The translations under genes and the position numbers were made by a program. The notes beneath the pieces are model-generated. The model was not told the DNA's origin and ran no database searches. It saw only the letters and a program-made list of their open reading frames with translations. A stretch of 64,000 bases of DNA from a virus. Its lineage: Duplodnaviria; Caudoviricetes. Shown here in pieces: positions 3,491 to 61,480 of the stretch (within the stretch, counting starts at the first letter, position 1; every line of letters begins with the position of its first letter). Location: IMG/VR virus record IMGVR_UViG_3300017716_001697, positions 160,001-224,000 of that record. One strand, written 5' to 3'.

Positions 3491-5086
3491 ATGACAAACA
3501 ACAGAACAAACTTTACGGAACGACACCTACACGGCGGTTGGGCAAAGTATCTTCCAGCAATTAGTGGATTTTACACAACACATTTAGGTAAGGATTTAGC
3601 CGATCCTGAATTCATCCCTGATTCTCGCGTACCTAAGGGATTTGAATTCGGTATGCAAGGACTGAACTTCTTTAAAGAAGACAATAATTATTTTAATTAC
3701 AAATTTGGTCTATTTTCAGCAGGTCATGCAGAAAGAAATCTTGCTAAGTGTAATGCCCGCGAACCGATGATTCACGATCGCGATCGTGAGAAGACGATCT
3801 TAATTGGTGACTCGGGTGGATTTCAAATTGCTACAGGTGTCATTAAAGTTGACTGGGCTACAGTGCAAACCCCGGCAGGTGATAAGTTGCGTGAAGAAAT
3901 TCTACGATATCTAGAGCATACATCGGATTGGTCGATGACATTAGACGTGCCGGCGTTCGCGGCAGAGCCACCGCTTAGTGCAAAAACTGGGTTAACAAAA
4001 TTCTCTGATTGTTTAGATGTTACTATGTATAATCTAGTATACTTCATGGAGAATCGTATCCCAGGTAAGACAAAGTTTTTGAATGTATTATCGGGTTCCG
4101 ACGCCGATAATTCCAAAGAGTGGTATGACTCGGTAAAAGTGTTTAGTCAACCACACATGGTCGAAGCGATGGGTTACACAAAAGACCGTACATTCGAAGG
4201 CTGGGCATTCGCTGGTATCAACATGAAACATATGCCGTCAGTGCTTAATCGTCTCTTAAACTTGCGCGATGACGGGCTATTAGCAGACAAAGATTGGATT
4301 CACTTCCTGGGCATTGGTCGACTAGATTGGGCATGTTATTTGACTTCTATTGAACGTGTATTAAGGAAACATTACAATCCCGATATCAATATTAGCTTCG
4401 ATGCAGCATCTCCCTTCGTTGCCGCTGGCGGCTATGCGTTATCGTATAACTATAACAAATTCAGCCCAGGCCAATTAACATATGCAATGGGCCGCGGAAT
4501 CGATGATAAGGGCGAGAAGGGTTCTACAGCAGCTATGCCGTTTCAGAGCCCCATTTATGATCGATTAACAGTTGGCGATATGTGTGTAATGGGGCCTAAT
4601 GATGCAAATAAACACGGCAAGATAGGAAACACAAGTTGGGATACAACGTCGTATGCATTGGTAATGGCACACAATGTTTACAATCATATTCAAGCTATAC
4701 AAGAAGTTAATAGACTTGCTGACGTCGAGTATGCCACAACTGCTAACCAAGATTTTAGACAATGGTTTGCACATCGTGGCAAGAAGATGAAGGCGCAGGA
4801 TACCAACAAAAGTGACTTTATCCCTAACGAAATAATCTTTATGAATAATTTCATTGAAGAACTGTTTGATCCTTCCACAAAAGATCCATACGGTATGATT
4901 GTTACTTATGCTGAATTATTAGAAAAGGTCAGTTTCACTAAGTTGGTAACTAAAAATAAATTAGACAGTAAACTATTTGAACTTGATGTATTTAACGGAA
5001 ATATCAATATACCCGATATTGACCAATTAGCAGTTTCAGATGATACACACTTAGTTGATAAATTAGCAGAAGACGATGAAACATGA
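3491..5086 (+). CDS. tRNA-guanine transglycosylase-fold protein, probably DNA-directed (DpdA-like)
   Basis: TGT motifs GDSGGFQ, MTLD, IHFLGIG, SFDAASP, HNV; Zn-binding Cys cluster not evident; queD and queE nearby. Confidence 0.8.
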   Translation: MTNNRTNFTERHLHGGWAKYLPAISGFYTTHLGKDLADPEFIPDSRVPKGFEFGMQGLNFFKEDNNYFNYKFGLFSAGHAERNLAKCNAREPMIHDRDREKTILIGDSGGFQIATGVIKVDWATVQTPAGDKLREEILRYLEHTSDWSMTLDVPAFAAEPPLSAKTGLTKFSDCLDVTMYNLVYFMENRIPGKTKFLNVLSGSDADNSKEWYDSVKVFSQPHMVEAMGYTKDRTFEGWAFAGINMKHMPSVLNRLLNLRDDGLLADKDWIHFLGIGRLDWACYLTSIERVLRKHYNPDINISFDAASPFVAAGGYALSYNYNKFSPGQLTYAMGRGIDDKGEKGSTAAMPFQSPIYDRLTVGDMCVMGPNDANKHGKIGNTSWDTTSYALVMAHNVYNHIQAIQEVNRLADVEYATTANQDFRQWFAHRGKKMKAQDTNKSDFIPNEIIFMNNFIEELFDPSTKDPYGMIVTYAELLEKVSFTKLVTKNKLDSKLFELDVFNGNINIPDIDQLAVSDDTHLVDKLAEDDET

Positions 5087-52566: not shown

Positions 52567-52746
52567 GATACGGTATGATTTGTCCGAAATGTGATACACT
52601 GATGGGTGCAATGGGGTATGGTGATGAACGGTGTCCTGCTTGTGGACACACATCATATTCTGAATCTGATGAAGAATTTAATCTTCGCATATACGGTACA
52701 ACATTCCGTGAAGGCGAAGATATTGACACTGAACAAAGAGAATAAT

Positions 52747-53940
52747 ATGGAAATCGAAAATGTAAAAATGTGGGTAGGTGATATGGAAGTAGAGCAAGCA
52801 GCTCTATCCCAAATCCTAAACATTTCCCAACTACCTATCCTTGCTGGACACATGGCTATCATGCCAGACGTACACATGGGTAAAGGTGCCACTGTGGGTT
52901 CTGTTATCCCTACACGTTCTGCAATTATTCCTGCGGCTGTGGGTGTGGATATCGGCTGTGGTATGATTGCAGCAATGACCAACCTTACTGCCGATGATCT
53001 TCCTGACTCATTGTTTTCGTTGCGTAATGCAATTGAAAAGGTAGTACCTGTAGGATTCAACGAACACGCAAAGGGCATCCCTTCTGTATCGGGACCTTAC
53101 GCAGATATCCTGCGCAAGAATTTGCACAAGACAATGGATCAATGGGATCACTTGGCAATGAAGCAGCACCTTGGTCGTGCTGACGAAAAGCGCATTGCTC
53201 GCCAAATCGGTACGCTAGGTGGTGGTAACCACTTTATCGAAATCTGTCTCGATACATCTAACCGTGTGTGGATTATGTTACACAGTGGTTCACGCGGTAT
53301 CGGCAATCAAATCGGCACTGTTGCAATCGAAATGGCTAAAGAACAGGCTGCTAAACGTGCATGGGGTCTCCCTGATGCTGATCTTGCATGGCTGGACGAA
53401 GGCACAACCGAATTCGATGCATACATTGAGGCAATGCATTGGGCACAGGACTATGCAAAATTCAACCGCGATACAATGCTGAATTTGGTTATTTCTGCAA
53501 TGAAGGTAAAGTTTCCTACAATGAAGATTGTTGGCGAAGTTGTAAACTGCCACCATAATTTTACAAGCGTGGAAGAGCACTTCAATGAAAAGATCTGGGT
53601 GACACGTAAGGGTGCAGTTTCTGCGCAGTATGGGCAAATGGGTATTATTCCCGGCTCAATGGGTGCAAAGTCATTCATTGTTCGCGGTAAAGGTAATCCT
53701 GATTCCTACTGCTCGTGTTCGCATGGTGCTGGTCGTAAGATGAGCCGCAACCAAGCTAAGAAGTTGTTCACATCACTTGATCTAGAACAACAAACAGCCG
53801 GTGTTGAGTGCCGTAAGGATGCAGACGTAGTTGATGAAATTCCGGGTGCATATAAGGATATTGATCAGGTAATGGCAGCGCAGGCTGATTTGGTTGATAT
53901 TGTACACACGTTGAAGCAAGTTCTTTGTATTAAGGGGTAA
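52747..53940 (+). CDS. rtcB: RtcB RNA 3'-phosphate/5'-OH ligase
   Basis: MPDVH, AVGVDIGCG, GTLGGGNHF, LHSGSRG, HHNF, PGSMG, SCSHGAGR, DEIPGAYK; likely start ATG 52747. Confidence 0.97.
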   Translation: MEIENVKMWVGDMEVEQAALSQILNISQLPILAGHMAIMPDVHMGKGATVGSVIPTRSAIIPAAVGVDIGCGMIAAMTNLTADDLPDSLFSLRNAIEKVVPVGFNEHAKGIPSVSGPYADILRKNLHKTMDQWDHLAMKQHLGRADEKRIARQIGTLGGGNHFIEICLDTSNRVWIMLHSGSRGIGNQIGTVAIEMAKEQAAKRAWGLPDADLAWLDEGTTEFDAYIEAMHWAQDYAKFNRDTMLNLVISAMKVKFPTMKIVGEVVNCHHNFTSVEEHFNEKIWVTRKGAVSAQYGQMGIIPGSMGAKSFIVRGKGNPDSYCSCSHGAGRKMSRNQAKKLFTSLDLEQQTAGVECRKDADVVDEIPGAYKDIDQVMAAQADLVDIVHTLKQVLCIKG

Positions 53941-53942
53941 TC

Positions 53943-54995
53943 ATGGGATCATGGAACGGAACATGTGCAGTATCTAACCTGCACGTACGAAGCGGGCAAG
54001 AGGTAGCAGTATTCATGCTGCTCGAAAACAAAAGATCAAAATCCTTCTGTTATGGTAATGCATTGTACGATGTATGCCCGTTACCATTCTATGGCAAGTA
54101 TAATGATTACGGTGCAGTAGAAGACTGCCAAGGCCCGGTGTTGCCCATTGTGGTTGACGAAATCAAGCGCCAGCTGTACGAATTTGGCCAAGGCCCGAAC
54201 AGTAGCCACGACATGGTAGTACGCAGGGCCGATTTTGACATTGATCTGTTATTTGAAGCCGACCACGAAGATCGTCTCGGTATTCAATATACACCCTTCT
54301 TCGACGAAGATGATTATGATCTTCGCGAATTGCGTAAAGACGGTGAAAAAGATCAACTTACACCAGATCAGCAATTCGAGCTTGACAGACTAGCCAACAA
54401 ACTCAAACAGGTAGATACATTTAGACGTGTTACACACGTAATTATTCATGGTGATATTTTCCGTGATATCATGAATAAATATTACATCGATGAATATGTT
54501 GGTGACAGCAAAGGTACAACAGGTTATGGAAATAACTATAACCGTGTATTCTTTAAGGATATTCTTGCATCTATTCCTGCATACATCGATGCCTGCAAGT
54601 CTGAAGCGGCAAGAATTAATGCTATGACTGACCCGCATGAACAATGGGCAGAACGAAACATTCCTAAGGATGAATGGAAGAATCCTAATCTTGCAGCAAG
54701 ATGGCTAAACAGCTTCAGTAATAGCAGCGAAGGATTCGGGCTTCTTCGTGTCGACGAATACATTCGCGAATATAAGAATGACGGCCGGTGGGACGAGCTG
54801 ACAGACTTTGTTACAGAAGCGTTAAAGGGTGCATGGGTAAATAGATATATGTCATCCATCCGTAAGCTGTGGTCGAAGCAGACAGGTGCCGGCTCTCAGA
54901 ATGATGAACATGATGGATACAATATCCTGATCCAATCAATGACAGACGTATTGGCGGCCGAGAAGAAGGCGTGGGATGACGAGAACGGGGAGTAG
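53943..54995 (+). CDS. Hypothetical protein
   Basis: 350 aa, directly coupled to rtcB. Confidence 0.75.
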   Translation: MGSWNGTCAVSNLHVRSGQEVAVFMLLENKRSKSFCYGNALYDVCPLPFYGKYNDYGAVEDCQGPVLPIVVDEIKRQLYEFGQGPNSSHDMVVRRADFDIDLLFEADHEDRLGIQYTPFFDEDDYDLRELRKDGEKDQLTPDQQFELDRLANKLKQVDTFRRVTHVIIHGDIFRDIMNKYYIDEYVGDSKGTTGYGNNYNRVFFKDILASIPAYIDACKSEAARINAMTDPHEQWAERNIPKDEWKNPNLAARWLNSFSNSSEGFGLLRVDEYIREYKNDGRWDELTDFVTEALKGAWVNRYMSSIRKLWSKQTGAGSQNDEHDGYNILIQSMTDVLAAEKKAWDDENGE

Positions 54996-57663: not shown

Positions 57664-58290
57664 ATGATATGCGAATACGGATGTAATGGGGAGGCCAATC
57701 ATCAATTACTAAACGGTAAATGGTGTTGCAGTAAACGGCCCGCTGGTTGCAAGGTGCTAAAGGCAGTTAACTCGGCAGGTCTGAAGAAAGCGCATAGTGA
57801 GGGTAGGGGCGGATATATTTACAAAGATCTATCTGACGAAACCAAAGCCCGAATGAATTGGGCTAAGGGTAAGACTATTACACCCGATAGCGAAATATTT
57901 ACAGAAAATAGCACATACTCTAACGAGATGGTTAAACATAGAATTGTTAAAGGTGATCTATTAGAATACAAATGCTCTAATCCGAAATGTGGAATAACCG
58001 AATGGTGCGACGAATCTATTGTGTTAGATTTGGATCATATAAATGGTAACAACACAGATAACAGATTATCTAATTTACGATACTTATGCCCAAATTGCCA
58101 TTCTCAGACAGACACATACAAGGGCAGAAATAAGAATACAGGTAAGTTGAAAGTAACCGACACTGAATTGTTGGCAGCATATAAGGAATGCAATAATATT
58201 AGGCAAGCATTAATCAGCGTAGGAATTGCTGCAAAGGGTGGCAATTATGAAAGATTAAAAAAATTAATTAGCAAAACGCTTGCCCTATAG
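57664..58290 (+). CDS. Free-standing HNH endonuclease (homing-type)
   Basis: YKCSNPKC, LDLDHINGNNTDNRLSNLRYLCPNCHS; GATAAATA at 57637 and AGGAG RBS. Confidence 0.9.
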   Translation: MICEYGCNGEANHQLLNGKWCCSKRPAGCKVLKAVNSAGLKKAHSEGRGGYIYKDLSDETKARMNWAKGKTITPDSEIFTENSTYSNEMVKHRIVKGDLLEYKCSNPKCGITEWCDESIVLDLDHINGNNTDNRLSNLRYLCPNCHSQTDTYKGRNKNTGKLKVTDTELLAAYKECNNIRQALISVGIAAKGGNYERLKKLISKTLAL

Positions 58291-58358: not shown

Positions 58359-58648
58359 GCGGGTATGGAGAAATTGGTAAACTCACCAGACTTAGAGAAA
58401 TAAAATTTGAGTGCCCGGTCGGAAACGATCGGAGTAGAACCTGTCAAATTCGGCGAACACTTTAACATGTCAACGCCGAGCGAAGCCCGAAAGGGAACGT
58501 GTAGAGACTTGACGGCAGGTACCTAACGCAGAAATGCTACGGTAAAGACAAAGTCCAGACTATCAAACCGAGAGGGTAGCGAAAGCTATAGTAGTAAGAA
58601 AATCTGGCGCCGCAAGGCTTGACGGTTCAAGTCCGTCTACCCGCACCA
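58359..58648 (+). tRNA. tRNA-Leu(UAA), intron-split (exons 58359-58393 and 58599-58648)
   Basis: Acceptor GCGGGTA/TACCCGC; joined exons give CCAGA-CT-TAA-AA-TCTGG; long variable arm; GACGG-TTCAAGT-CCGTC; ACCA. Confidence 0.93.
58394..58598 (+). mobile_element. Group I intron (IC3-like), 205 nt, no ORF
   Basis: P1 ACUU|AGA:UUUGAGU with U-G at splice site; P2 GAAA hairpin; P3 ACCUGUC/GGCAGGU; P4 UUCGGCG/CGCCGAG; P7 G-A-GACUU/AAGUC-C; P8; P9; terminal G. Confidence 0.93.
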
Positions 58649-58743
58649 TATTAGGATACATTGTGCAGACGCGGTAGCTAGCCCAAAAGGGACTTTACTA
58701 GCGACAATGGTGAATGCAGGTACAACAGTGTATCCCAATATGG
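58646..58743 (+). ncRNA. Helix-closed RNA module H1
   Basis: CCATATTAGGATACATTGT / ACAGTGTATCCCAATATGG (18/19 paired). Confidence 0.6.
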
Positions 58744-58744
58744 T

Positions 58745-58927
58745 GCCATATTAAAACGCATAAATGCATTAGTTGCATTGGTAATCTGAATGACGTGGAT
58801 AGCTGCATCTTACCCACTGTCAAACAGAGGACATTGCAGGTGATAGCAAATGTAATGGTTTACAGCTAGGCGATTAGAGTCTGGTAGGTGGGTTCAACTC
58901 CTGCTAATGCGGTTTAACATGGCACCA
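58745..58927 (+). ncRNA. Helix-closed RNA module H2 with T-arm and ACCA end
   Basis: GCCATATTAAAACGCAT / ATGCGGTTTAACATGGC then ACCA; GTGGG-TTCAACT-CCTGC at 58888-58904. Confidence 0.6.
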
Positions 58928-59017
58928 TATCGAAGTACATTAACTGAGTACAAGGCTCAGCGTGCGAATTTTAGTAACTAAGCCTCAAGAGGAAGCTATA
59001 GTGTACTTCGATATGGT
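58924..59017 (+). ncRNA. Helix-closed RNA module H3
   Basis: ACCATATCGAAGTACATTA / TAGTGTACTTCGATATGGT; internal hairpins CTGAG/CTCAG, TTAG/CTAA, CCTC/GAGG. Confidence 0.65.
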
Positions 59018-59031
59018 ATAATGTAGACGTA

Positions 59032-59132
59032 TATTGTAACATACACGGAAGGTAATTGGTCCGTGAAACTCGACTGTGGTGTAATGGTAGCACTCAAAAG
59101 TTCCTGGTTCGAATCCAGGCCCGCAATAACCA
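59032..59132 (+). ncRNA. Anticodon-less tRNA-like element
   Basis: D-arm GTGT-AATGGTA-GCAC, T-arm CCTGG-TTCGAAT-CCAGG only 9 nt later, TATTGT/GCAATA helix then ACCA. Confidence 0.45.
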
Positions 59133-59138
59133 AAGGGG

Positions 59139-59182
59139 GTTCGGCACAACGAGTAGGAGAGATGGTTCGATTCCGTCCGAAT
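59139..59182 (+). pseudogene. tRNA remnant (T-arm plus short helix)
   Basis: GATGG-TTCGATT-CCGTC with GTTCG/CGAAT flanks; no D or anticodon arm. Confidence 0.35.
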
Positions 59183-59190
59183 AGAGTTTG

Positions 59191-59269
59191 CATATTAGAG
59201 GGCATTATGCTTCTATTTAAAAAGGGAGCCTGTGCTGGCACATTGGCACATCTAATGTCCTCTAATATG
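59191..59269 (+). ncRNA. Helix-closed RNA module H4
   Basis: CATATTAGAGGGCATTA / TAATGTCCTCTAATATG (17 bp incl. 1 G-U). Confidence 0.6.
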
Positions 59270-59423
59270 ATGCAGGTAGGCAAATGTGGTAAAGCCGCCG
59301 GTTCGGTCCGGTGAGAGATATGTTGAAGTCTTACATGATGACGGGTAGCTGGGTCGACACAGTCCGTACAGTGGCAGGAGCGATATATTTCGTTTATGGG
59401 TTCGATTCCCATCTTGTATCCCA
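59269..59423 (+). ncRNA. tRNA-like RNA with 83-nt variable-arm insertion
   Basis: Acceptor (G)ATGCAGG/CTTGTAT(C)+CCA, D-arm GGC/GCC, GCCGG-TTCGGT-CCGGT arm, T-arm ATGGG-TTCGATT-CCCAT. Confidence 0.7.
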
Positions 59424-59428
59424 GAATA

Positions 59429-59628
59429 GCCAGGGTAGCTCAGTCAGGCACGAAACTTAAAGGGAAGATGTTGCAACATTCAACGGAGAGAAGTAATGAC
59501 TTAGGAAGGTTAAGTAGTAAGCATCTTATGATACGCGGTGTAAGGTGTGTAGGTGATAGCCAACTATTAAGTAGAGCAACCAGTATCTAACTGGAAGGTC
59601 GTTGGTTCAATTCCATCCGCTGGCACCA
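59429..59628 (+). ncRNA. tRNA-like RNA with ~123-nt D-loop insertion
   Basis: GCCAGGG/CGCTGGC+ACCA, D-stem GCTC/GAGC 132 nt apart, CCAG-TATCTAA-CTGG, GTTGG-TTCAATT-CCATC. Confidence 0.72.
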
Positions 59629-59634
59629 AATTAT

Positions 59635-59749
59635 GCGATGATAGCTTCAGGTTGGTAGAGCGCGTCATTGAATGCCCTATTTATTCTACGTTATGGTATA
59701 TAGGCGAGTGGTCAGGACGAGGTCGCAGGTTCAACGCCTGCTCATTGTA
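59635..59749 (+). ncRNA. tRNA-like RNA with ~40-nt anticodon-loop insertion
   Basis: GCGATGA/TCATTGT, D-arm GCTT/GAGC, CGTC/GACG enclosing 49 nt, AGGTC, GCAGG-TTCAACG-CCTGC; no adjacent CCA. Confidence 0.68.
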
Positions 59750-59753
59750 TAAG

Positions 59754-59861
59754 CCATATGAGAATACACTGTGGAGAGCACTGCGTATGACTGGGAAGGT
59801 TTGAACCCGACTCACATCGTCACTCGGTATCCTGCGGCCGCAACAGTGTATTCCCATATGG
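59754..59861 (+). ncRNA. Helix-closed RNA module H5
   Basis: CCATATGAGAATACACTGT / ACAGTGTATTCCCATATGG (18/19). Confidence 0.65.
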
Positions 59862-59863
59862 TA

Positions 59864-60180
59864 CGAAGGGTAGAAGATGATATCAAAGGCTATTTCCTTT
59901 TTTGATAGACGAAACGCTGTGGCCACGGTGTTAGACTACTTATTGGTTAACCATTGTACCGCCAGATTCCGAAGCCTGTAATCAGGCCTGCCAAACAGTA
60001 AATTGGAGTGTGGGAGGACGCACTTAAAACCATCTCCCGCAGGGTCACCATGTGTTATGAGCGGTGATAGTTTAGCGAACCGGAGTCCTAAAAACCGGAA
60101 GGGTAAAGCAAACTTACCTACAAGTAGCGAAAGGTCTGCTATAGCAGTCAAGCCATCCTAGTCTGGAAAACTAGGGTGCA
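59864..60180 (+). ncRNA. Candidate ~320-nt multi-hairpin RNA
   Basis: No + strand ORF; hairpins TATCAA/TTGATA, GCCTG/CAGGC, TGTGGGAG/CTCCCGCA, TCACC/GGTGA, CCGG/CCGG, GGTAA/TTACC, CCTAGT/ACTAGG. Confidence 0.45.
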
Positions 60181-60348
60181 TTTATTTTAGAAAGATATCC
60201 ATATGTACACTTATGCATGGACCATATTTGGTTATTACGGTGGACCTACTATGACAACAAATTATCAACAACACTGTTCGTGGTACACTGTTGACGATTT
60301 TGGTGATCTCGTACCTGCCACATACAAAATGGATTATTTGGAGACAAC

Positions 60349-60558
60349 ATGACACAGAAAATTTACGGATTAATTGCTGACGGCGGTGACGGAAGTTCTA
60401 GCATGCGTTGGTTTCGATCTTTTGATAAGGTTAACGAATTGCTCGACGAAGAGAATGGGCACGAGGAATATTGGGCGAACGAAGGCGGACCTGCCGAAAG
60501 ACTTACCTTCCCCGATGATCTTAATCTTGAGGAGTGCGGATTCTACTTTAGTGACTGA
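60349..60558 (+). CDS. Hypothetical protein
   Basis: 69 aa, GGAG RBS. Confidence 0.65.
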   Translation: MTQKIYGLIADGGDGSSSMRWFRSFDKVNELLDEENGHEEYWANEGGPAERLTFPDDLNLEECGFYFSD

Positions 60559-60563
60559 AACGT

Positions 60564-60797
60564 ATGACGTACAAATACGTGATTACTGTAGACTATCCTG
60601 AGCGAAGGCATATCTGGGATTGGTGTGTAGAACACATAGGTAAGTCAGCGCATGATACATTTTACTATGATCCGGGACAAGGGCAGTGGCCCAATATTCC
60701 GAAATTCATAATTTATAATCCAGAACATGCTACATTGTTTAAATTAGTATGGGGTGAATATATAAAGGGCAACGTGAAGGCCCCGTGCAGTATATAG
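60564..60797 (+). CDS. FKLRW-family small protein
   Basis: WCVEHIG...IYNPEHATLFKLVWG. Confidence 0.7.
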   Translation: MTYKYVITVDYPERRHIWDWCVEHIGKSAHDTFYYDPGQGQWPNIPKFIIYNPEHATLFKLVWGEYIKGNVKAPCSI

Positions 60798-60874
60798 CGG
60801 CATACCCGTATCTACTGCATAAAGGTATAGACTAGTAATACCACGGCTCTTGGTTGTTATCGGACTAAACAACC

Positions 60875-61011
60875 ACCATATCAAATCATATTGCCCTACC
60901 CATTGGGTAGCAGACAGTGGTTGGAAGGATCTGCTCGTTACTCGCCGCGTTGGATGCACTCGGGTTGCACCGATGCCAACAGACAGTGATTGCAGTATGA
61001 TTTGATATGGT
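60875..61011 (+). ncRNA. Helix-closed RNA module H6
   Basis: ACCATATCAAATCATATTG / CAGTATGATTTGATATGGT (19 bp, 1 G-U); internal CTACCC/GGGTAG, GCAGA/TCTGC, GTTGG/CCAAC. Confidence 0.65.
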
Positions 61012-61120
61012 CATTATATAGAAACAGAATTCTATGTTACAGGCGTGGGGGGTACGAACCACATTAAATAAATAAGTAACTGAAAATCCTGTGCCCCTCG
61101 AGTATGTTTCTATATGGTGA
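61011..61120 (+). ncRNA. Helix-closed RNA module H7
   Basis: TCATTATATAGAAACA / TGTTTCTATATGGTGA (16 bp, 2 G-U). Confidence 0.55.
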
Positions 61121-61248
61121 TGTAGTGTCCTCGAAAGGGACTGTGGCGGGGCGGAACGGATCGTTATACGGTGATGCCCATGAGAATTCAATCCACACGG
61201 AGCAAGAGTAAGTGAACGTGAGTAGCCGACTACCAATCACCATAACCA
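61113..61248 (+). ncRNA. Helix-closed RNA ending in ACCA, overlapping H7
   Basis: TATGGTGAT / ATCACCATA then ACCA; GTAGT/ACTAC; GTCC-TCGAAAG-GGAC hairpin. Confidence 0.45.
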
Positions 61249-61334
61249 TTAGACAGCGGCGGCGCCGGGTGTTATAATATGCTGAGCCTAGTACAAAGGG
61301 TCGACACGCAAGATACATAATTCGCAGCATATTT

Positions 61335-61462
61335 CTTATTGAAGTACATTTTTGTCCACATTTCTCCAGGGAGCGACTGTGGGTGCGTTGTCACTAAACT
61401 ATACGACGCCAACCATCCCTAGACTGTACGTAAGACACACAGTTGGAATGTGCTTCAATAAG
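61335..61462 (+). ncRNA. Helix-closed RNA module H8
   Basis: CTTATTGAAGTACATT / AATGTGCTTCAATAAG; internal CCACA/TGTGG, GCGTTGT/ACGACGC, ACTGT/ACAGT. Confidence 0.65.
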
Positions 61463-61480
61463 ATTTAACACATAAATTAT

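Follow-up and report, generated by a model that had tools for sequence, protein, structure and literature searches.

The tRNA-gene cluster near the end of the stretch analysed here raises the question of what the long inverted repeats between its transfer RNA (tRNA) units are, and why several of them begin exactly on an encoded CCA end. The stretch, called the window, comprises 64,000 nucleotides, bases 160001-224000 of the 364,576-bp IMG/VR phage record IMGVR_UViG_3300017716_001697, a genome with direct terminal repeats. An earlier note on this DNA had claimed that closing helices in the cluster, among them H1 (58645-58746), H3 (58924-59017) and H6 (60872-61014), start on CCA ends and keep them masked until processing. 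H1, H3 and H6 are members of a family of modules of about 100 nt, each with a conserved and covarying closing helix of 19 bp. The family is without a match in Rfam 15 and without a description in the literature searched, and it recurs in dozens of tRNA arrays of uncultured phages.

The helix has the consensus ACCAUAU-N5-UACAYU ... AGUGUA-N5-AUAUGGU, the interiors are variable and the cassettes measure about 65-160 nt. In general the helix sets in on the discriminator and CCA of the preceding unit and runs out in UGG(U) immediately ahead of the following one. The arms of the window modules align to a common sequence in which the 5-nt block differs in a compensatory manner. A pattern that fixed only CCATAT, TACA, TGTA and ATATGG found 58 matches in IMG/VR, about 45 of them with the five free positions complementary. 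The same pattern, applied to 596 Gb of prokaryote contigs, returned nine non-complementary chance matches and two true ones, both in phage-like tRNA arrays of metagenome-assembled genomes. When 46 modules were aligned, oriented by their neighbouring tRNAs, 96.3% of the cells of the 19-bp helix were paired and 9 of the 19 pairs showed changes on both sides. None of 500 shuffles matched the observed pairing and covariation, and controls with a slid partner paired at 28-48%. Eight pairs are invariant by ascertainment; the evidence of covariation therefore sits in the free positions.

A covariance model of the family, R1, extends these observations. H1, H3, H5 and H6 were in its seed, so that their scores are partly a matter of construction. 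Within the genome of the window phage, R1 finds modules at 218.6-221.5 kb only, plus one marginal hairpin at 3686-3755. In related loci it gives well over 100 further non-seed matches, at most nine per array, with none in chance loci or in T4, and these non-seed matches are independent support for the family. Nearly all copies are located within the tRNA arrays of T4-like phages and share the strand of the tRNAs, and all five complete carrier records encode a T4-type major capsid protein (gp23). The family is restricted to the tRNA arrays of uncultured T4-like phages.

The helix is best assigned to RNA of the tRNA strand. In the tRNA orientation its wobble positions comprise about 55 G.U cells versus about 15 A.C cells, each window module scores 8-20 bits higher with R1 on the + strand, and the T-loop motifs of the cargos are seen in the sense orientation only. 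These three observations indicate a selected RNA structure on the tRNA strand, not a DNA palindrome. Position N2 shows a recurrent A.C on that same strand; the strand argument is therefore statistical and not absolute, and the wobble pairs alone are not clean.

Searches for a known equivalent were negative. Between 58200 and 61600 only a group I intron passes in Rfam 15, and the modules have merely chance matches to microRNAs and small nucleolar RNAs at E 3-10. Rfam on 14 related loci gave tRNAs plus one sub-threshold YrlA match outside the modules. The 3.2-kb region and an H5-type module, compared by blastn with 50,697 GenBank phages, gave intron and tRNA matches and none for the modules. R1 found only two chance-level matches of 18-19 bits, both in XaC1, among the cultured phages T4, XaC1, GAP32, S-CRM01, KVP40 and XacN1. 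The literature on phage tRNA arrays, hairpins, CCA, YrlA, T4 rnaC and rnaD and noncoding RNAs of T4-like phages held no description of the stem that we could find. The modules were also considered as self-cleaving ribozymes and rejected, as no Rfam ribozyme matched and the interiors are unconserved between modules. As tRNAs they were rejected too: neither ARAGORN nor the Rfam tRNA model calls them, and their CCA stands at the start, not at the end.

The relation to CCA is exact where it occurs. Arrays with ARAGORN tRNAs contain 87 modules. The first CCA of 43 of them is also the 3′ CCA of a same-strand canonical tRNA, and an offset of 1-10 nt is seen in none; in 12 modules the GG of the closing UGG is already the start of the following tRNA. 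This first scan of the register demanded CCA...TGG and was therefore repeated without that demand, on 563 CCA-encoding tRNAs, by looking for a long-range hairpin at offset 0 with at least 13 of 14 pairs. Such a hairpin follows 58 of the 563. In 44 of the 58 a TGG able to pair with the CCA stands right after the 3′ arm, where 1/64 (about one case) would be expected, and a T opposite the discriminator usually follows the TGG in these 44. The corresponding p of about 1e-67 is a formal figure that ignores shared ancestry and is inflated by it. About eight of the cases not paired at the CCA are expected to be false hairpins.

The identity of the CCA-paired tRNAs is strongly biased. Lys, Glu and Gln tRNAs make up 27 of the 44 against a background of 79/545 (Fisher p 3e-14; loci L002-L059, shared ancestry uncorrected), and ten more are tRNA-Leu. 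The unit upstream of a module is a canonical tRNA in about half of the copies, and modules that do not abut a tRNA are often without CCA. A third orthologue of H6, in the contig L082, has UCAUAU/AUAUGA in place of CCAUAU/AUAUGG, and hence CCA is not required for the H6 module. CCA pairing is thus supported as an exactly registered, predicted structure conserved within the family, although not a universal one.

These results separate the parts of what the earlier note had proposed. That closing helices start on CCA ends is borne out for H1, H3 and H6, which start on ACCA and close with UGGU, whereas H4, H7 and H8 lack a CCA start. That CCA ends are masked in the precursor agrees with the predicted folds, in which the upstream CCA, usually together with the discriminator, pairs with UGG(U) across the module. 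As to the claim that several non-tRNA modules end in A-CCA, the hairpin modules themselves never end in CCA, which belongs to the upstream tRNA or tRNA-like unit. It follows that neither aminoacylation nor binding of EF-Tu, as had been suggested, is to be expected of the hairpins once released, and that mimicry is applicable only to one unit preceding H3, called unit B, and to a few aberrant tRNA-like units. A T-loop next to the 3′ arm is found in just 16 of 93 cargos. Masking of CCA is supported as structure; as a function it is only predicted.

The segments enclosed by the stem show a different kind of conservation. Cargo interiors are highly diverse and mostly singletons in blastn, and those of the seven window copies are unrelated to one another. 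Between genomes, orthologous cargos are retained. The H6 module is 88% identical overall to its counterpart in the relative G001, where the adjacent open reading frame (ORF) is 68% identical. In the alignment, the H6 cargo itself (60895-60991) is about 95% identical, the stem has changed in a compensatory fashion and the flanks differ; upstream of H6 there is a microhelix here and a tRNA-Met in G001, the CCA of which starts the orthologous module. The same cargo is recognisably kept in the third contig (loci window, L072 and L082) and matches no Rfam family. The H3 cargo has a 93% match in G001, and the H7 cargo has orthologues in G003 and G018 and clusters with L025. Since orthologous cargos are so strongly conserved, they look like genes and the stem looks like their shared wrapper. 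Conservation above that of the neighbouring ORF suggests a cargo that may be functional in its own right.

We give an even chance to the reading that the stretch is an array of stem-cargo cassettes in which the helix would serve as an excision signal within a polycistronic tRNA transcript. The helix, its covariation and strand, its exact CCA register, its restriction to phages and tRNA arrays and the conservation of its cargos are the observations on which this model is built. From them we infer a single precursor in which the helix would unite a tRNA's 3′ end with the 5′ leader of the tRNA that follows, as one duplex of two turns. A double-strand-specific endonuclease, most likely the RNase III of the host, would cut inside the stem. 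The upstream tRNA would then be trimmed to its CCA by 3′ exonucleases and RNase P would finish the 5′ end of the downstream unit, with release of a stem-closed and presumably exonuclease-resistant small RNA that carries its own cargo, whatever function the cargo may have. The CCA would stay masked until the cassette is excised, a consequence of the excision model that does not extend to a regulated switch.

The dimensions of the helix are consistent with such a signal. Over 93 copies its median length is 19 bp from the first C of CCA (interquartile range 18-20), to which the discriminator pair adds one to make 20; without the CCA and discriminator pairs it falls to about 15-16 bp. Escherichia coli RNase III substrates usually contain two helical turns, and by this criterion the module helix has the length of an RNase III substrate (PMC1540722). 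In the excision model the CCA would be paired because it supplies the outer four base pairs needed for two helical turns when a cassette abuts a tRNA without a spacer. A U.G beside an A-U pair is conserved at alignment columns 19-20, its polarity depending on where the putative cleavage site lies. Phage-encoded RNase III was found in 0 of 17 records. Given also that Ro60 was not found and that the RNA ligase RtcB is rare among carriers, host enzymes are implied.

Several points weigh against excision of this kind. The stem gives no confident match to the proximal and distal box rules, which ask for a canonical UA/UG distal box and for no GC pair beside the scissile bond. Its near-constant sequence exceeds the known needs of RNase III and could reflect a sequence-specific protein or shared descent. 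A cut placed exactly at CCA|U and staggered by 2 nt would cost the following tRNA its G1 in the 12 cases of overlap, and the cut would therefore have to be placed deeper in the stem or be made by another enzyme. Half of the modules are not preceded by a canonical tRNA, and some (H4, H7, H8 and that of L082) have no CCA. Moreover, the 44 CCA-paired cases are not phylogenetically independent.

The main alternative, an extension of the switch in the earlier note, makes the masking of CCA the function itself: tRNAs would be kept uncharged with their 3′ ends shut until processing, either to time their supply or to shield the CCA from exonucleases or from those host toxins by which tRNA 3′ ends are modified. 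We consider this possible but rather unlikely. The pairing of CCA and discriminator in 44 of 58 abutting cases, always in exact register, speaks for this alternative, and the upstream tRNAs are biased to Lys, Glu and Gln and to Leu. tRNA-Lys, tRNA-Glu and tRNA-Gln are targets of known anticodon nucleases, and in the window phage a gene for RtcB lies 5 kb upstream. However, only a minority of array tRNAs bear a module (44/563 CCA-encoding tRNAs are CCA-paired), the main array of the window phage, with 44 tRNAs, is essentially module-free, modules without CCA exist, a conserved cargo is unnecessary for masking and RtcB occurs in only one of 30 other carriers. A broader version, a device for counter-defence or timing, would have the CCA of selected precursor tRNAs, mostly for Lys, Glu, Gln and Leu, locked in a duplex away from host toxins and exonucleases with tRNA 3′ ends as their target, and one cut would free both the tRNAs and swappable cargos acting as decoys or regulators; this we hold to be improbable. 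A similarly low probability is assigned to the idea that the modules are mobile DNA elements, either resembling miniature inverted-repeat transposable elements (MITEs) or dependent on homing, whose terminal inverted repeats were inserted at CCA|G tRNA junctions and whose RNA helix is a by-product. The palindromic ends CCATAT...ATATGG, the exact junctions, the several copies per array, the patchy positions (G003 lacks H1, and the unit before H6 is tRNA-Met in G001 but a microhelix here) and a nearby homing endonuclease, the HNH ORF at 57664-58290, all fit it. Yet the arms covary, which keeps complementarity rather than one sequence, and the asymmetry of G.U versus A.C favours selection on RNA of the tRNA strand. 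Interiors are unrelated within a genome and orthologues are conserved between genomes, the opposite of recent transposition. No transposase was seen beside the array in the window; the carrier contigs were not looked at. In the MITE-like form the idea was rejected on the unrelated interiors of the seven window copies, the covarying arms and the strand-asymmetric wobble pairs.

Two further explanations take the units themselves as the point of departure. That they are tRNA mimics, either aminoacylated or acting as decoys for EF-Tu or synthetases, is unsupported and has very little probability in our estimate. Unit B and the aberrant tRNA-like units do retain an acceptor, T arms and ACCA, T-loops adjoin the 3′ arm in the cargos counted above, and a related array contains a YrlA-like tRNA mimic (34 bits, short of the gathering score, at L015:1245-1358). 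Against this, the hairpin modules are without a terminal CCA, a 19-bp stem far exceeds the length of an acceptor stem, tRNA features are absent from most cargos, the additional helix-plus-ACCA ends once proposed are not significant and no orthologues of the tRNA-like units B to G were detected in the relatives searched. Least credible of all is that the region consists of functionless, decaying remnants of duplicated tRNA genes or spacers. Aberrant tRNA-like units do stand between modules, and the H1 and H3 arms and the T arms recur at a spacing of 267-279 nt, suggesting tandem duplication; but the helix covaries, the cargos are conserved above coding DNA, the modules recur in dozens of distinct phages, and the unrelated cargos of the IMG/VR copies contradict a single, recently spread sequence.

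Among known systems, the nearest precedent is provided by RNAs C and D of phage T4 (species 1 and 2; rnaC and rnaD), which are small, stable non-tRNA RNAs lying, like the modules, among the tRNA genes of a T4-type phage, on the tRNA strand. T4 rnaD begins one base past the tRNA-Arg CCA and has an ACCA end of its own, and T4 rnaC has a T arm. Their roles are still unknown (PMC3014915). Unlike the modules, they have no constant CCAUAU...AUAUGG closing stem and are two RNAs rather than multi-copy cassettes; they resemble the modules neither in sequence nor by model, as R1 finds no match in T4 68000-75000 and no shared stem is apparent on inspection. Processing stems of RNase III (of the T7 R1.1 type, those flanking ribosomal RNA and those of ribosomal RNA intervening sequences) share with the modules a duplex of about two turns around an RNA meant for release from a polycistron. 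Unlike those stems, the module stem is near-constant across phages, is registered on CCA and encloses variable but conserved cargos, and its cleavage is here only proposed.

The intervening segment of permuted (two-piece) transfer-messenger RNA (tmRNA) is comparable in another respect. Like the modules, it separates an encoded CCA from the next acceptor strand's 5′ end, and its excision matures both ends. The window phage has a circularly permuted tmRNA gene outside the window (G000:C1:30533-30892, tag ANADTFALVA), with an intervening segment of 57 nt; the AAUCAUAUUC/GAGUAUGAUU stem closing this segment has 10 bp and begins 2 nt past the CCA. A similar permuted gene with an 11-bp stem is present in the locus L028. 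In both, the stems of 10-11 bp are of the CAUAUU/AGUAUG type, start 2-3 nt past the CCA and leave it unpaired, in contrast with the module stem, which is twice as long. R1 has no match at the phage's own tmRNA gene, and the candidate that the module stem closes the tmRNA segment was discarded, as only this shorter, related CAUAUU stem with its unpaired CCA is found there. The window modules sit between separate tRNA-type units and not inside tmRNA, so the likeness is one of position and processing logic only.

YrlA (Rfam RF02553) resembles the modules in having a long stem formed from its two ends and a variable, sometimes tRNA-like module. The T arm, where the modules have one, is at the 3′ side, whereas in YrlA it is at the 5′ side. 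YrlA and Y RNAs have a Ro60 (TROVE) gene as a neighbour. Near their 5′ end they carry a GNCGAA motif that binds Ro (PMC4201824). An assignment of the modules to YrlA or Y RNA was rejected: the 364,576-bp genome has no TROVE/Ro60 match, GNCGAA is absent from the stem consensus and there is no Rfam match. The YrlA-like mimic of L015 places a T arm and then a D arm within a long stem in the tRNA array of a related phage, a 167-kb record; its E is about 1e-5 locally and the gathering score of the family is 69. The tRNA-microRNA units of gammaherpesvirus 68 and the 3′ external transcribed spacers of bacterial tRNAs are further cases of a hairpin RNA right after a tRNA, with ends set by tRNA processing. 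These involve other hosts and enzymes, and we know of no conserved CCA-pairing helix in them.

Annotations of phage tRNA arrays usually show tRNAs with nothing but empty spacers between them. Here much of the spacer belongs to a conserved RNA system, in which the stem is constant, the registration on CCA is exact and the cargos are conserved beyond the neighbouring genes. Should the stem act as a processing signal, it would represent a new way for phages to punctuate tRNA transcripts and to make defined small RNAs, and it would offer a far larger comparative data set for the 50-year-old puzzle of the stable RNAs of T4. If CCA pairing is functional, it would add a new layer of control or protection over phage tRNAs, and through the bias to tRNA-Lys, -Glu and -Gln it touches on anti-phage defences that target tRNAs, a subject of current interest.

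The individual modules of the window lie on the + strand in a region where the long-range inverted repeats of the genome are concentrated, as found in a genome-wide scan; six more such repeats of 16-30 nt occur within the 2.8 kb that follow that of H1. Each module fold beats its dinucleotide shuffles (z -3.7 to -6.1). The cluster opens with tRNA-Leu(UAA) at 58359-58648, called by ARAGORN with introns allowed. A group I intron of 205 nt splits it (58394-58598; 53 bits with Rfam RF00028, over the gathering score). The ACCA of this tRNA (58645-58648) forms the first four bases of the H1 helix, which bears out the start of H1 within the tRNA-Leu 3′ end that had been proposed. H1 is closed by ACCAUAUUAGGAUACAUUGU/ACAGUGUAUCCCAAUAUGGU around a branched interior of 60 nt and folds at -43.7 kcal/mol (z -5.98; R1 54.6 bits on the + strand versus 38.6 on the - strand). 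The whole inverted repeat, 58643-58664/58725-58746 (22 nt, 91%), runs from the 3′ GCACCA of tRNA-Leu to the TGGTGC that ends at 58746. The two outermost pairs (GC/GC) would compete with the acceptor stem of tRNA-Leu; they are not a family trait, alignment columns 1-3 being unconserved. In G003 the orthologous tRNA-Leu, also intron-bearing, is not followed by H1. Parts of the neighbouring group I intron have two short look-alikes in the H1 cargo (58484-58522 and 58680-58723), AGCCCGAAAGGGA versus AGCCCAAAAGGGA and TGACGGCAGGTAC versus TGAATGCAGGTAC, by either chance or shared origin.

H1 is followed by unit B, the H2 of the earlier note (58747-58927; inverted repeat 58736-58761/58907-58932). 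It has a 17-bp outer helix (58747-58763/58907-58923), a tRNA-like core with the acceptor GCAUUAG/CUAAUGC, a T arm and an insertion in the anticodon region, and then ACCA at 58924-58927. The unit occupies the place of a tRNA in the array; ARAGORN calls it at a low threshold (58765-58912), and the Rfam tRNA model does not recognise it. H3 (inverted repeat 58917-58942/58999-59024; z -6.11) gives the best R1 match of the genome at 64.1 bits. In the minimum free energy fold of 58599-59030, H1, the H2 core and H3 abut directly with no unpaired base between them; H3 therefore begins on the ACCA that trails H2, and it closes with UGGU, in accordance with the earlier reading. A helix with an ACCA end, claimed at 59132, was not upheld (fold z +0.54).

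H4 (59188-59272) was detected as an inverted repeat with a family-type stem (GCAUAUUAGAGGGCAUUA...) without CCA at its 5′ end; it has a z of -5.59 and aligns with the family but falls under the R1 threshold. Three aberrant tRNA-like units follow at 59270-59423, 59429-59628 and 59634-59750, identified by ARAGORN with introns at a lowered threshold and by T-arm repeats. Their acceptor and T arms are intact, with insertions of 40-120 nt, and the first two end in CCA; Rfam gives just a weak tRNA-Sec-like match of 18 bits. Together with 58765-58912 these are four tRNA-like genes whose insertions, in the anticodon or D region, fall short of the size of a group I intron. Standard ARAGORN and Rfam do not call them, and no orthologues were detected in G001, G003 and G018. 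H5 (59753-59862), an inverted repeat with the stem GCCAUAUGAGAAUACACUGU... and a T-loop-like GGUUUGAAC in its cargo, starts on a CCA 5 nt past the acceptor stem of the preceding tRNA-like unit. It scores 56.0 bits with R1 and has an 86% orthologue in the contig G018/L043.

The microhelix at 60851-60880 consists of 7-8 bp followed by ACCA, and its place is held by tRNA-Met in the alignment with G001. H6 does start on this ACCA (60877-60880), as stated before, whereas the microhelix itself is not distinctive, with z -1.3 and an equally good fold in 22 of 200 shuffles. The inverted repeat of H6, 60865-60894/60992-61021, encloses a 97-nt cargo, and R1 gives 51.3 bits. H7 (61010-61121; z -4.35; R1 20.8 bits) and H8 (61330-61467, UCUUAUUGAAGUACAUU...; z -3.99; R1 24.4 bits) are inverted repeats with divergent stems and no CCA, and their R1 scores are marginal. 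The helix-plus-ACCA end suggested at 61248 finds no counterpart in the fold, which has no closing helix there (region z +1.0).

The window phage has a T4-type gp23 gene and at least 45 tRNA genes (ARAGORN), mostly at 3.8-56 kb of the genome. The module region is a second, smaller RNA-gene cluster downstream of RtcB, two ordinary tRNAs and the HNH endonuclease ORF. The RtcB gene (52606-53940, Pfam E 1e-127) lies about 5 kb upstream of the module array; as a general partner of the modules RtcB was rejected, being confirmed in the window yet present in only the single other carrier record mentioned above. Directly after it there is a 350-amino-acid ORF (53943-54995) without a Pfam match. The HNH-type ORF has a weak Pfam HNH_3 match and stands immediately 5′ of the intron-containing tRNA-Leu, the group I intron of which contains no ORF.

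Some features outside the window complete the picture of the genome. The hairpin at G000:C1:3686-3755, the sole R1-like match outside the module region (24.5 bits, marginal), has a perfect 15-bp stem (AUAUUUAAAUGCACU...) and a 40-nt interior, and it lies just 5′ of the first tRNA of the main array. The main array also includes a tRNA with the anticodon CUA (G000:C1:33705-33780), of the amber suppressor type and labelled 'Pyl' by ARAGORN, which raises the question of TAG recoding in this phage. The gp23 match is split into profile positions 1-71 and 127-375, 15 nt apart (G000:C1:341341-342321). The same holds for G001 and G003, the two closest relatives of the window phage; the major capsid gene may thus have an insertion, a changed frame or a divergent domain.

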